Shown one piece after another: positions 1 through 63,390 of a stretch of DNA of 64,000 bases (positions are counted from its first letter, which is position 1; every line of letters starts with the position of its first letter). The notes under the pieces are model-generated. The model made no database searches, was not told the DNA's origin, and was given only the letters and a program-made list of their open reading frames with translations. Source of the DNA: Lophium mytilinum (taxonomy: Eukaryota); contig MU004199.1 of NCBI GenBank assembly GCA_010093605.1, forward strand, positions 186,001-250,000, given 5' to 3'. The position numbers and the translations under genes were made by a program.

Positions 1-140
1 TGGTTGCGCTTGCCCTTGGCGTGTGAGCTAAATGATACCACTATGCCAGGCGTTGGGGGGTTTTTAGGTAGTGTAGCACAGTGAAATGATATCTTGTGCT
101 CACATTTGCTGGAGTTTGAAGATGTTTTGAGTGAGGGATG

Positions 141-478
141 GTACTGTCTGAAGTCCTCTGACAAGTTCCGAGGAATTGGGTGAAAGGTGAATCGGTGGTA
201 TCTGTGTATGTAGGTTTACCACCGTCTGAAGTCCCTCGATGCATTTTTGAGAAACAGGACGACATGCGAACTGCCTACATCTATGTACATAGGGTCGCCA
301 CTGCATGAGGTACTCCACCACGCCATGAAAAGCCTGCTAAGAAAATGCTGAACGGCATGTGTGTACACCGCTTCGCCACTGCCTGAAGTGCTCCACCATG
401 CCTCCAAAAATCTGAGGAAAAAGGATCTCAGCGGTACATGTGTACCTCGCTCACCACCGCACGAAGTCCTTCAACCCC
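141..478. repeat. Degenerate tandem array, 5 units, 78-79 bp period, ~35-bp conserved core with variable spacers
   Basis: Core YGARG anchors at 149, 227, 306, 384 and 462. Cores: gtactgtctgaagtcc / ccaccgtctgaagtcc / ccactgcatgaggtac / ccactgcctgaagtgc / ccaccgcacgaagtcc; the last four are preceded by tgtgtat/tatgtac/tgtgtac. Confidence 0.8.
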
Positions 479-515
479 CCTTCCAAAAAGCAGCCAAAAC
501 AAATCCCCTTCTCCA

Positions 516-3147
516 CTAAAGCAACAACAAATCCCCACCCCCATCCCCCCCCATCTGACCCATCCCACCCATGCCACCCATCCCGTTCGCTCCCCCAGGA
601 CTCTGCACAATCCCCTGCGGCGCATTCTGCGTCACGACATACATACTCGCGCTATTCCCCGCAATCGGAGAACCCCCAAACGCGCTCTCGCGCATCTGCC
701 CCGCGTTCAGATTCGCGAAATACATATCCGCCTCACTAACCGCGGCAGCGAGATTCCCGTTCTGCGGCACGCTGGCCCCATTCCCATTCCCATTCCCATT
801 GCCGTTCCCGTTGCCGTTGATACTCGACAACGCCGCCGTATCCACAACCGGCCTCTCAGCGGCCGCTTTCTCGCGCGCCGCCTTGGCCGCGCGCACGGTG
901 GGGAGCGTGTGGCGCTGCAGCGCGGGGCTCTCGACGAGCTTGCGGGGGCGGGCGGAGCGGAAGACCTGGTTGACGGGCTTCAGGTAGACGGTGGCGAGGG
1001 TGCCGACGCTGAGGCACATTTCCTCGAGGGTGGCGGGGTCGAGCTTCTCGCTCTCCTCGGCCGTGATGGCGGGCTTGTCGCCCATGACGACGCGCTTGGC
1101 GATTTCCGGGGACGAGGAGAGCAGCCGCCAGTACATGTAGCCGCGGTCGCGGAGGTCCGGGTTGTCGGTTTCCTCGGTGGCCCATTTCAGCACTTTGGGG
1201 ACGAGCTCTTGGCCCTTTGTGGGGCGTTGGATGAAGAGTTTTACGGTCGCGGTGAGGAGGGCGAGTTGCACTTCGTGGGGCTCGTCGGCGAAGCTGTAGA
1301 GGAAGTCGTCGAGGAGTACGTCGGAGTTGTCGATGCGGTCGGCGTATTGGCCGATGACCCAGATCATGGCGGCTTTGGCTTCGGGCTCGTCGAGTGAGTC
1401 GAGGTTTTCGCAGAGCGTGCTGATGATGGACTCGTATTGGTTGGGGTACTTGCGGAAGATGTTGCGGATCACTACGGTGGCTTCTTGCACGATGTAGGAG
1501 ACTTTGGTGGCGACGAGCTCGAGCAACGTGTTAATGCAGAGGCGGGCGGCGGGCTCGATTTTGATGGCGAGTTTGCCGATGGCGCGCACGGATTTGCGGA
1601 CGAAGTCGACGTCGATTTCCGTGGCGTATCTGGAGATGGGTTAGACGTGATGGATAAAGGGGGCTAAAAACAACGTACTCTCGTAATTCTGTTAATACTT
1701 CTTTGATGTTACGTTCCGTGGCAAGCATGAAGATGAGTTCCAGCTTCGTCACCTTGACGTAAATCGGGTCGTTGTATTTGCAGAAGAAAACGCGGATGTC
1801 GTTTCGTAGCACCTCCGGCCTCCGTTGTAAAATGAGAAGAGCGTTTCGGAGGGCGAGGTATTGGATTTCGGGTCCTTTTGATAGAAGTGTGACGAGCGGT
1901 GGGGAGAGCTTATTACACAAAGATGCTATTACTTTCTGGTCGGATATGTAGTTCATGAGGTAGAGGATAACGCGAATGCAGGTTAGTACGACAGCGGAAT
2001 TTGAATGCGAAAGTCGAGGGGAGATGCGCTCAGCGAGAAGCGCTGCTTCACTAGTGTCTTGTGGGACGTAGTTCATCATGGCCTCTAAAATGTATGTTTG
2101 GCCCCATCTAGTCGGTGTTAGTAATGATACATCCCTGCAATTGGTCTGCTTACTCTGAGCAGTCAGGCAGAATCTGGACAATCTTCGAGGCACTCGCATA
2201 GTCTATAGTGAGTTTGATGCTCTCGCTCCGTTCCCAAATATCCATTAGACCTGCTAGTGCGCTCGAAACCACTGTTGGATTCTCGTCCCTCAGCATAGTG
2301 TTCAGCCGATCAATAAGATCGGAGGATTCCACTAGATGTTTATCGTGGTCGTACAGCTTCGCAACGCAGAAAGCAGCTGTTTTTCGAACGTAGGGATCTG
2401 AGTCTTTCAGGAGTCGTTTCAGGGGAGGAACGGTCGCTTCCACAAATTCCCGAACGTGGATATACGACATCGTACGTAAGGCAAGGGCCCGCACTAGGGG
2501 GTTATTGTCGTCCATATCCTATGCGACCAGTCAGCATATGAATCCCTAGCTGGCGAGCACGGCGCATACATTGACGATGATAGGCAGTGCCTTCAGTGCA
2601 ACGTCCGGTTTTATCCGAGCGTAGTTGACCAGGTATAGGAAGCACCTAAGTTCCAATCAGTTCCCGGCCCACTATGACTTCCCATAACATCGCATCGCAG
2701 CAACTAACATCTTCTTGATTTCCAGGCTCGAAATGTGCATGCAAGCTACGATATCTGGGAACAGGGCCACCATATCGTTATTGCTCATTGTCATATTCGC
2801 GACAATCTTCTTCAGCGCCGTCTTCTTCGCGGAGAAATTCTTGTCCTTCTTGCCGCCGCTGTTGAGTTCGAGACGTAGCTCCGCTACTTTGCCCTGTGGA
2901 GAACGGAGGTATTGTAAGCGCGCTGTGTTTTCGAATGCAAAGGTAGGAATGAACATGGTGACATCGCTCGACTATGGGAAACCATAGCACGGATGCGCCG
3001 TCGATTCGAGCTTGCGAAAGCGTGCAGTATCATAGACTGCAGCTGTAGAAATCGGAATGTGGTGATAATGTGTGGTAATGTTGACAAAGAAGCGCAACAT
3101 GGACGTACTCTCGCAAAGAGCTTCGCATCTTGGCCGCCTGCACTCAT
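516..3147 (-). CDS. APL1: AP-2 adaptor complex subunit beta (beta-adaptin), multi-exon
   Basis: [32 protein letters not shown]..., [34 protein letters not shown] introns (intron 1 is 3108-2894). Lacks a C-terminal ear domain, as is typical of fungal AP-2 beta. Confidence 0.93.
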
Positions 3148-17469: not shown

Positions 17470-18102
17470 TGTGTCGGTTGTGGATGTCGTTTTCAAGAGG
17501 GCGAGATAGGATGGGGAGCTGGTGGCGGCGCAATCGGCGGCGGGGTTGCGAGTCGAGATGGCGGGATTAGAGGTATGGAAGAGGGAGGGGAGAATATACA
17601 ACTGCGTACGGCTACACGAGACGAGCAGACGAGCAGAGATGGGGGCGCGAGGTAGTGAATGTATGGGTGGTGGTGATGATTTTTTGAGCAGGGAGCGCCG
17701 ACCGCGAGAATCGTGCACGGGCCACGTCTTCGGGCCGGAAAGACGGCGGAATTTTCCGGTCTCTCTTCATCATCTTCATCACCATTACTTCAGGGAATCA
17801 TCAACGCATAGTCTTTCTTAAAGACATCGAGCCTCTATTATGTACAACCCACTCATGAACGGCCTTAAAATACTTCCGGCGGTTCTAGTATGCTTTGATA
17901 AACCTCGTTGCCTTAAACGTTGGAAACTCATACAATAACGCAGTAAGTCCAGGCACAAGGACCACTTTTATTCAGCTCCAATCTTGCTCATTTGATACGA
18001 TTGAGAGGAGTGATCCTGCTAGTTGGTAAGCAGTGAATCCAGCAGCAGTCTGATATGAGCTGCCTGGAACTGGACTTCGCGCCTAGATGTTGGAAACTCT
18101 TC

Positions 18103-18473
18103 GGGGGTACTCCAAGGAGTGGTAAGCAGGTGTGCATAGACTTCTGGCTTGCCACTGTATATCCTAGTACCTGCAAAACGTGTACACTTGCTCGCTACTG
18201 TCTGGGGTCTTTCGGCAAAGTCTTAAGAGTCTAAAGGAGATGTAAAAAGCTAGACAACACTATTGGACTGGTTTCATTGCCTTCATTCGACCTATCTTGG
18301 GCATGACAAAGGCGGCACGCTCAGCAAGCGTTCCGTCTGACATACACTGTCTGCCACTGCTTGAAGTCCTTCAACAAGTTCGCACATAGCCCAAAACTAA
18401 CAATTCCTATCTCATATATACTTTTTCTAATACATTGGAGCACCACAAGCAGCGGCAGACAGGTGTGCACAAG
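18103..18473. repeat. Cluster of four copies of the ~35-bp motif in alternating orientation
   Basis: Reverse 18103-18137, forward 18179-18216, forward 18340-18378 (catacactgtctgccactgcttgaagtccttcaac), reverse 18436-18473. Confidence 0.7.
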
Positions 18474-18642
18474 ACTATTAGTAGCCTGAGTACCTACACA
18501 CGGAACTTCGATATACATCCGCATCTCCAACATGCTAGTCCTTCCCAACGGTCAATCCATTAGCCTGTCAAAGACGTCCTACAACTCGGGTTTCTACAGA
18601 GCAGACCTATAAAAAGCACGCTGTCATAGGCCGCTCGTTCCA

Positions 18643-24030: not shown

Positions 24031-24177
24031 TTTGTGCACACTCGTTTGCCACTGCCAGGAGTGCCCCCATGGGGTGGACTACAACGTAGATATTATGTCA
24101 AGCTTCAGAAAGCGTGATCTGAGCTTCCTCATGACTAGACGGGGCCGCCCCTGGCAGTGACATCCAGTTTGCAAAAA
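24031..24177. repeat. MITE-like inverted pair of the ~35-bp motif
   Basis: Forward tttgtgcacactcgtttgccactgccaggagtgcccc at 24031; reverse ggggccgcccctggcagtgacatccagtttgcaaaa at 24141. Confidence 0.65.
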
Positions 24178-24983
24178 CGACACCCAAGGAGTGATATTCG
24201 TGTGCTCAGATGGATGGCCTAGTATTGTATTTGTAGATCATAGAATAGCTTGTGAATGCCCGAATGTTACTACTTGGGGCAGCTCAGCGTATCGCCAGGG
24301 AATCGGATATGATGCTGGACCGAAGTTCACAGAGCAAGAATGAAAGATGAGATGGCTGATCATGATTCGTTTACCTAACCAAGTGCCCCAACTTATTCCC
24401 AAGGGCCCTGACATAATCCAAACTTACTCTACCTGACCTCCAAGAAGCTCTTCACGAAGCTTTGTGGTACTTGGTCGAAAATCGTATCCTGCTCGCGAAA
24501 CTGCGAGGCGCGCTAAACTCCGTCCGTTTGCCAAGCTCTATATCATCCACAGCTTTACAGAAACCTCCCCCTCGGTATTCCTTATGCTGCTCAATCTCAT
24601 AGCATAATCTGATGGCACTATCTTCTAGTGACCGTATAAAGTACGAGTCGTCGTAAGCGCGAGTGCAGGCATGACAGGTCTCCGGACTGAAGAAGTATTA
24701 GCGTACGCAATAGACGCTCGTTGTTGTAAGAGGTTGGAATGGCTTACAGATTTGTGCCAGCCGCGATGTACGCGAAGGCCAGTAGGAACACGTTCATGAT
24801 CATGACGAAGTTGTACGTCCACTGTGCCCACTCCATCTCGCCGCTGGCAATGGCGCTCCTGGCGATGAGAAGAGTAGCTAAGATCCCGGCTGGTACGGTG
24901 CTGACCATGATGTAATTTTCCACAAACCAGGCGATGGTGACCTGCTTGCGGACCTAGGAGAGTTATTAGTCGCGTCTTAAGAT

Positions 24984-33734: not shown

Positions 33735-33900
33735 CACTTGTAGCTGTCTGAAGTGGCCCGAGGAGATGTTAAGGTATTCAAAGAAACACATCCACGGGGC
33801 ACGTCGAGATTCGGATAATCTTATGAAGCATCCCCAGCACTGGCAGAGAAGTGTGCATAGACTAGTCACCAGACCCCGCAGAGATGCCAAGCTACCTAGG
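33735..33900. repeat. Motif copies downstream of the HET gene
   Basis: Partial forward ctgtctgaagtg at ~33744; tcggataat at 33811; reverse cagcactggcagagaagtgtgcatagact, whose gtgtgcatagact is identical to 18130. Confidence 0.55.
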
Positions 33901-63287: not shown

Positions 63288-63390
63288 GTCTTCGGGCATT
63301 TGGTTAATTTGGAACGATAGAGAGAAAATCAGCATGGCCCCTGCACTAAGGATGACACGCGTCGGTTAAGGGTAGCTCCAAATTTTTTTT
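63288..63390 (+). ncRNA. U6: U6 spliceosomal snRNA, variant or pseudogene copy
   Basis: 5' GTC-TTCG-GGC hairpin; AGCATGGCCCCTGCACTAAGGATGACACGC (AGC triad plus ISL); T8 terminator; ACAGAGA reads AGAGAGA. Confidence 0.9.

Follow-up and report, generated by a model that had tools for sequence, protein, structure and literature searches.

In bacteria, the transcribed DNA between genes harbours REP/BIME elements, boxes of 35-45 nt that are found alone, in inverted pairs forming hairpins, or in regular clusters. In rodents, SINEs carry sites for insulator proteins, so that binding sites for a host factor are spread by transposable elements. Short arrays inside mobile elements have been reported from bivalves: the DTC84/pearl-type elements are MITEs with internal tandem repeats (PMC3879986), and oyster Helentrons bear short satellite-like arrays within non-autonomous mobile elements (PMC7492417). 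Certain nematode satellites are reported to contain a conserved box within a variable monomer, with CENP-B-box-like motifs (PMC3694981).

Here we describe a box family in the window, by which we mean the whole stretch of 64,000 nt analysed, from contig MU004199.1 of the fungus Lophium mytilinum, and a tandem array of five such boxes near its left end (Table 1). The array is like the bivalve and oyster element arrays, as these are reported, in being short and euchromatic (up to about five units), in having a palindrome in each unit and in the association of its repeats with a dispersed family that has inverted repeats. It is unlike them in that no flanking cassette, terminal inverted repeats or target-site duplication were found with it, in that copies of the box family do not share their internal sequence, and in that the host is a RIP-competent ascomycete. 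As in the boxed satellites as reported, drift affects the monomer outside a retained block of about 17-20 nt, and binding of a protein or recombination is the proposed role of this box. In contrast to these satellites, the array consists of only five units and is intergenic, transcribed and located between expressed genes, rather than long and heterochromatic or centromeric, and recognition of its box is a proposal of the present work. Its small size and euchromatic setting clearly keep it from being classed as satellite DNA.

The likeness to REP/BIME elements is by analogy only: the fungal box, too, is found singly, as inverted hairpin pairs and as a regular cluster, but its host is a eukaryote, the array is direct rather than alternating, and the family is not known to have a dedicated transposase. 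With the SINE-borne sites the box family shares the character of a lineage-specific, information-rich site that is copied by a repeat and kept at some loci; unlike in that case, its factor and its mobility are putative. The array is a short dispersed and tandem repeat with a conserved box, which is a known kind of element, and its function is putative.

A five-unit array with unevenly conserved units

Five co-oriented units occupy positions 100-490, with cores that start at 141, 219, 298, 376 and 454. The resulting core-to-core distances of 78, 79, 78 and 78 bp are those given in a preliminary description of this DNA, whose core coordinates were confirmed, and the periodicity exceeds that of every shuffle: the segment 91-495 compared with itself gave identities of 0.419 and 0.415 at lags of 78 and 157, respectively, while the best lag in shuffled versions of the segment (n = 500) had a mean of 0.322, a standard deviation of 0.012 and a maximum of 0.374. 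A hidden Markov model (HMM) built from the five units scored every one of them at E values from 6e-14 to 1e-9. With up to 3 mismatches allowed, the core pattern has seven matches in the window (0.79 expected), five of which are in the array, and none of 100 shuffles reached this number. TRF, which had been proposed as a check, did not report an array at 100-490 even at score 30; the array is thus too decayed for this program. The array is a real and statistically solid feature. Its left edge may hold one more box, and at the equivalent place in organism D, one of two close relatives compared below, the palindrome part of this box seems better kept.

Table 1. Positions of the array, the dispersed box copies and neighbouring features in the window
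Feature	Position	Strand	Basis or remark
Conserved non-coding block left of the array	32..81	.	organism D RNA contig
Possible sixth box, degenerate, out of phase, at the array's left edge	94..117	+	read from the sequence
Five-unit tandem array, period 78 bp	100..490	+	lag identity; five-unit HMM
Unit 1 core	141..156	+	2 mismatches to core pattern; palindrome part degenerate
Unit 2 box: palindrome remnant and core 219-234	200..245	+	
Unit 3 box: 12-nt perfect palindrome 281-292, core 298-313	279..322	+	
Unit 4 box: 8-nt palindrome 361-368, core 376-391	357..400	+	
Unit 5 box: core 454-469, the most diverged of the five	437..475	+	
Beta-adaptin gene, continues past 2893	516..2893	-	Adaptin_N matches; spliced contigs; stop 516-518
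Dispersed box copy	18096..18141	-	HMM, core pattern
Dispersed box copy	18178..18221	+	array-only HMM, E 0.0065
Convergent inverted box pair, hairpin	18335..18475	.	array-only HMM, E 4.2e-5; fold z
Second convergent inverted box pair	24031..24177	.	HMMs, inverted-repeat arms
Weaker convergent pair	33743..33862	core-like 33743-33760 (+), box 33819-33862 (-)	minus copy, E 0.026

The array lies 37-46 nt past the stop codon of the beta-adaptin gene and antisense to it. The preliminary description had placed its end 40 bp from the stop; as measured, the last core is 46 nt and position 478 is 37 nt away. The view that the array is not RIPed was borne out by its indices (TpA/ApT 0.67, (CpA+TpG)/(ApC+GpT) 1.22), which are close to those of the rest of the window (0.68 and 1.19) and unlike those of an AT-rich block at 51-60 kb. 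An origin of the array by RIP was rejected on these values, which are normal for the window. The AT-rich block itself is 9 kb long, with a GC content of about 0.26 and indices of 1.74 and 0.11, respectively; it is presumably a RIP-mutated transposon, and the host genome clearly uses RIP.

The core recognised earlier is part of a larger conserved module of about 45 nt, in which a short TGTRCAC-type palindrome is followed by 7-8 nt, a core of 16-21 nt and about 10 nt of shared 3' flank. Roughly 30 nt of variable DNA are left in each unit, where poorly conserved spacers of about 40 bp had been reported. Their variability is not in doubt, but they are not independent of one another: several pairs of inter-core spacers align above shuffles, with z values of up to 6.5 (spacer 3 versus spacer 4), and the overall identity of units 3 and 4 is 60%, rising to 75% over 59 nt. 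Since the spacers retain residual homology, the array began as a true tandem duplication. The repeat-spacer picture of the preliminary description thus gives way to one in which the spacers go back to a common sequence from which they have decayed, and in which the array belongs, as one locus, to a dispersed family; it arose long ago by tandem duplication of the whole 78-bp unit and has since decayed unevenly and kept its spacing.

The unevenness is pronounced. In an ungapped register of the five units, the mean pair identity is 0.74 over the 16-column core and 0.34 over the remaining columns, which also answers the question, raised earlier, whether the spacers match each other as well as the cores do. 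None of 20,000 column permutations gave as conserved a block of 16 columns. The differences in and around the core comprise 63 transitions and 32 transversions, versus 130 transitions and 204 transversions outside the core, where the positions look near-saturated.

An ordinary decaying minisatellite, in which the better-kept block is due to chance or to local variation of the mutation rate, would have the head-to-tail order, the constant period and the residual homology over whole units that are seen here, including the overall likeness of units 3 and 4. What speaks against it is that the decay is not uniform, as the permutations indicate, and that the sequence is not private to one locus, the same box being present at other loci and in another species. 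A plain minisatellite is accordingly disfavoured, as had been supposed from the beginning, and we regard this reading as very improbable.

Two further identities were considered for the array and rejected. A CRISPR-like array is contradicted by repeats that are only about 74% alike, by the homology of the spacers and by the location in a fungal nuclear region with spliced genes. As for a coding role, the open reading frames in the array (63-74 aa) are found on both strands, overlap in different frames and match nothing; the single 79-bp spacing breaks a 26-codon register.

A dispersed box family in the window and in close relatives

When the window was scanned with the HMM made from the five array units only, as the preliminary description had recommended, box copies were found outside the array, at 18350-18380 (E 4.2e-5), 18176-18228 (E 0.0065) and 24031-24067 (E 0.08), with weaker minus-strand matches at 18471-18423 and 18140-18094. 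A second HMM, made from ten boxes, adds 33862-33819 at E 0.026 and several matches at E 0.2-1.5 near 20.4, 24.2 and 31.1-31.6 kb. A RIP-tolerant version of the core pattern, which is purine/pyrimidine-degenerate, has 11 matches in the window versus 1.11 expected, a number that was reached in 0 of 100 shuffles. Four of these matches are in the array and seven outside, six at the loci at 18.1-18.5, 24.0-24.2 and 33.7-33.9 kb; the AT-rich block at 51-60 kb has no match to this pattern. Since the dispersed copies were located by means of a core model, the conservation of their cores is in part a matter of ascertainment, whereas the test made on the array itself is unbiased.

The dispersed copies are intergenic and lie on the 5' and the 3' sides of genes in both orientations, as judged from a Pfam-based gene map. 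At three loci they form convergent inverted pairs. The arms of the pair at 18335-18475 (18347-18374 and 18435-18462) are 28 nt long and 82% complementary and enclose an AT-rich loop of 60 nt; on folding, the segment 18332-18478 gives a long hairpin (z -5.4 and -4.65). In the pair at 24031-24177, arms of 22 nt (24047-24068 and 24141-24162), also 82% complementary, enclose a loop of 72 nt, and the hairpin is less clear (z -1.6 and -3.8). The pair at 33.7 kb, which sits just downstream of a HET-domain gene, gave no hairpin signal in the fold test. The arms of the three loci can be aligned and the loops cannot, which repeats what the array shows: the box is kept and the rest is lost.

Two other arrangements were seen in this part of the window. 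At 18094-18165, two cores point apart around one common palindrome, a divergent arrangement that stands as a third one besides the tandem and the convergent; its RNA fold z is only -1.9. Adjoining the box pair at 24.0 kb is an 18-nt inverted repeat (24183-24200 and 24261-24278) that is 83% complementary and has a 60-nt loop, and whose arms resemble degenerate cores.

Given that a box of about 45 nt together with its flanks is common to several loci and to two species, the copies would derive from a common source. Judged by these sequence comparisons, this implies that the box family is probably a dispersed transposon-like repeat rather than a set of convergent binding sites. Inverted repeats around a short, non-coding, AT-rich interior, as in MITEs or foldback elements, are present at two dispersed loci; in the array itself all units are direct. 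Other hallmarks of such elements were not found: no flanking direct repeat that could be a target-site duplication was seen at 18335-18475 or 24031-24177, and the interior is not conserved among copies. Old copies of a mobile element could have lost their target-site duplications.

Across the adaptin gene, organism D and the window are about 91% identical, with 227 other letters and 38 gaps between 515 and 2998, and the syntenic spacer of organism D measures 364 nt versus 457 nt in the window. At 80% likeness, only two pieces of this spacer align, namely the block 32-58 and an exact 21-mer. The 21-mer equals window positions 215-235, that is, the core of unit 2, and is located 29 nt from the stop; its chance expectation within the organism D spacer is 4e-8. 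The 29 nt past it resemble the DNA after unit 5, which makes this core the positional counterpart of unit 5. The core of organism D keeps the family consensus, while unit 5 in the window has drifted at 5 of 21 positions; the constraint on a single site is thus not absolute. Box 4 (360-393) has a counterpart on another, non-syntenic organism D contig, with 30 of 34 nt in agreement (0.004 expected by chance), so the family is dispersed in organism D too. An exact match of 19 nt to 215-233 on an organism D contig was dismissed as being at chance level (expected 1.2).

Left of the array, an organism D RNA contig with a depth of 2466 covers positions 32-81 (6 other letters, 3 gaps) and a further 330 nt toward the adaptin stop. 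The differences in this block include frame-breaking indels, and the block could belong to the promoter or an untranslated region of the highly expressed left neighbour. In organism C, a contig covers approximately 270-415, an extent derived from the distances to the contig ends. Among the differences listed, at least 3 fall on 94 box positions versus at least 6 on 52 non-box positions (Fisher p 0.069), so the sparing of the box in this organism is suggestive.

Farther away, the comparison set consisted of 80 fungal adaptin loci from metagenomes, the best of which has a protein identity of 87%. The unit HMM matched none of the 80 at E<=1, and a core match with 3 mismatches was found in four, which is the chance level. 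In a blastn search of window positions 1-700 against the same loci, nothing aligned to 100-460, while the coding part aligned in most; short, low-scoring matches to the C-rich stretch 463-580 were obtained with L001, L002, L021, L042 and L044 (E 0.002 to 0.32). At L001, the closest locus with 87% protein identity, adaptin has another downstream neighbour, and synteny is therefore lost: segment 3989-4400 (minus strand), downstream of adaptin, seems to code for the terminal part of another gene, so that gene order is not conserved beyond close relatives. The box family appears to be confined to a narrow clade, as far as can be judged from a comparison with 80 loci that is limited by lost synteny. 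Six core strings had no occurrence in the literature searched, and the box showed no convincing match to the transcription-factor and Pol III promoter motifs with which it was compared.

How should this pattern be explained? The array could be what remains, under neutrality, of a foldback/MITE-like mobile repeat; unequal exchange would have multiplied it in tandem, and its box would have no host role. The boxes would have stayed alike through ectopic gene conversion, since only the boxes have homologous partners elsewhere, and also because new copies stem from sources whose ends must stay intact. This account agrees well with a lineage-restricted family (the distant adaptin loci having given no HMM match) that is dispersed in both orientations, with inverted pairs whose AT-rich loops allow folding as hairpins, and a long, information-rich box is what one expects under shared descent. 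RIP acts only above a size threshold, and units of this size would escape it in a genome that uses RIP. Tandem repeats inside MITEs are, moreover, known in animals (PMC3879986). Several observations are at odds with this account. The two hairpin loci show no target-site duplications, the loops are not conserved between inverted pairs, and the only transposon-like block in the window holds no RIP-tolerant copy. Nor is it expected from the neutral decay of a dispersed repeat that conservation should be clustered within the array, that a spacing of 78-79 bp should be kept while the DNA between the boxes is near-saturated, or that an exact consensus core should be present at the syntenic site of another species. 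The clustered core conservation, the held spacing and the exact 21-nt core in the related species point to constraint on the core, which is suggestive at the level of sequence. A neutral relic is in our view a doubtful explanation, if one to be taken seriously.

Transcription across the array and a putative docking function

The gene to the right of the array had been named AP-2 beta, and this name is largely borne out: the product has Adaptin_N domains, and AP-2 complex subunit beta is the name that most of its homologues carry; a few sources say AP-1. The best named homologue, which is 83% identical, is from a Mytilinidiales-related Dothideomycete. RNA contigs skip four introns with CT..AC ends (1630-1678, 2108-2153, 2518-2568 and 2644-2706), which confirms these introns; such contigs are present in runs X3, X4 and X9. 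Run X3 is 100% identical to the window and, since it includes a spliced adaptin contig, represents RNA. Another X3 contig, of 1189 nt, covers window positions 1-538 without a joint and extends 651 nt past the left end, at a depth of 1300 versus 729 for the spliced adaptin contig. Thus, the array is present, unspliced, in abundant RNA of an identical strain, as the RNA coverage check recommended earlier has established, with the qualification that RNA contigs carry neither strand nor transcript ends and that one contig may merge two overlapping transcripts.

Some further features were noted in and beyond the adaptin gene. Its 3' part contains short in-frame tandem repeats, at 540-584 (9-mer) and at 777-819 (6- or 12-mers), which encode low-complexity tails rich in Gly/Met and in Gly/Asn. 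The RNA contigs of two species break at about 539-610, coinciding with the low-complexity stretch. At the other end of the window, 63288-63387 (+) is a U6 spliceosomal RNA gene (71.4 bits versus a gathering score of 44, E 4e-16).

The presence of the array in RNA raises the possibility that the boxes act at the RNA level, as untranslated-region sites for an RNA-binding protein or for small RNAs derived from the hairpin loci. The equivalent spacer of organism D is also covered by RNA, the core is close to small RNAs in length, the pair at 18332-18478 folds as a long hairpin, and UGUA, which we take to be an RNA-protein motif, is present on both strands of the palindromes. On the other side, the contigs give neither strand nor transcript ends, and one that spans two genes does not represent a single transcript; the orientation of the boxes relative to the nearest upstream gene is mixed. 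Folding of the array gave no energy excess on either strand (z -0.79 and -0.01), and the consensus structure of 11 aligned boxes contains 0 pairs. Rfam searched over 1-1500 returned best matches with E values of only 4.2 and 6.7, none at threshold, and ARAGORN found no tRNA; for the array, a structured RNA or a known Rfam family was rejected on these grounds, and the RNA-element option of the preliminary description is unsupported as far as structure goes. A mir-49 match at 18345-18464 was likewise rejected, since its 28.4 bits are far below the threshold of 60 and reflect hairpin shape only. An RNA-level role is, in sum, quite improbable.

We tentatively prefer, at somewhat less than even confidence, to see the box as a constrained docking site for a sequence-specific protein, within a lineage-restricted box family of transposon-like character. 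One member of this lineage-restricted set of short dispersed repeats would have been amplified in tandem long ago to give the array, and the family would have a transposon-like (foldback/MITE-like) origin and have been mobile. As the box is maintained and the DNA between boxes is not, we read the box as the place where a protein may dock. It would be recognised as double-stranded DNA by a sequence-specific protein, either a recombinase of the family's own or a host factor; the mixed orientation of the boxes and the absent RNA structure favour recognition at the DNA level. In the array, five docking sites at even phase would then form a platform within the short transcribed spacer that separates the adaptin stop from a highly expressed neighbour; most plausibly it would influence transcription where the two units meet, serving as a barrier, a terminator or an enhancer. 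Among the considerations that weigh against docking, ectopic gene conversion among the dispersed boxes could keep them alike without any function, and a box of 45 nt is far more information-rich than a typical binding site requires.

In a bolder version, purifying selection maintains the box as a working recognition module, which a transposon-like repeat has carried through the intergenic and untranslated DNA of one small Dothideomycete clade, and the host uses it either for phased docking (for example, as a barrier or for termination between packed transcription units) or as a target of small RNAs from the family's hairpins. We consider this version unlikely. If it were true, the selected box module would be a eukaryotic counterpart of the bacterial REP/BIME elements.

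To our knowledge, short dispersed repeats below the size at which RIP acts are poorly catalogued in filamentous fungi. The box family offers a testable case, in which one 45-nt box is kept in tandem, inverted and single form, and across species, amid decaying surroundings. If the box is not bound by a factor, it would be a clean example of conversion, or constraint at the level of transposition, mimicking selection in repeat arrays, and a caution for calls of repeat-spacer-like arrays in eukaryotes. If it is bound, the box would reveal a factor specific to the lineage that regulates the boundaries of genes in a compact genome.
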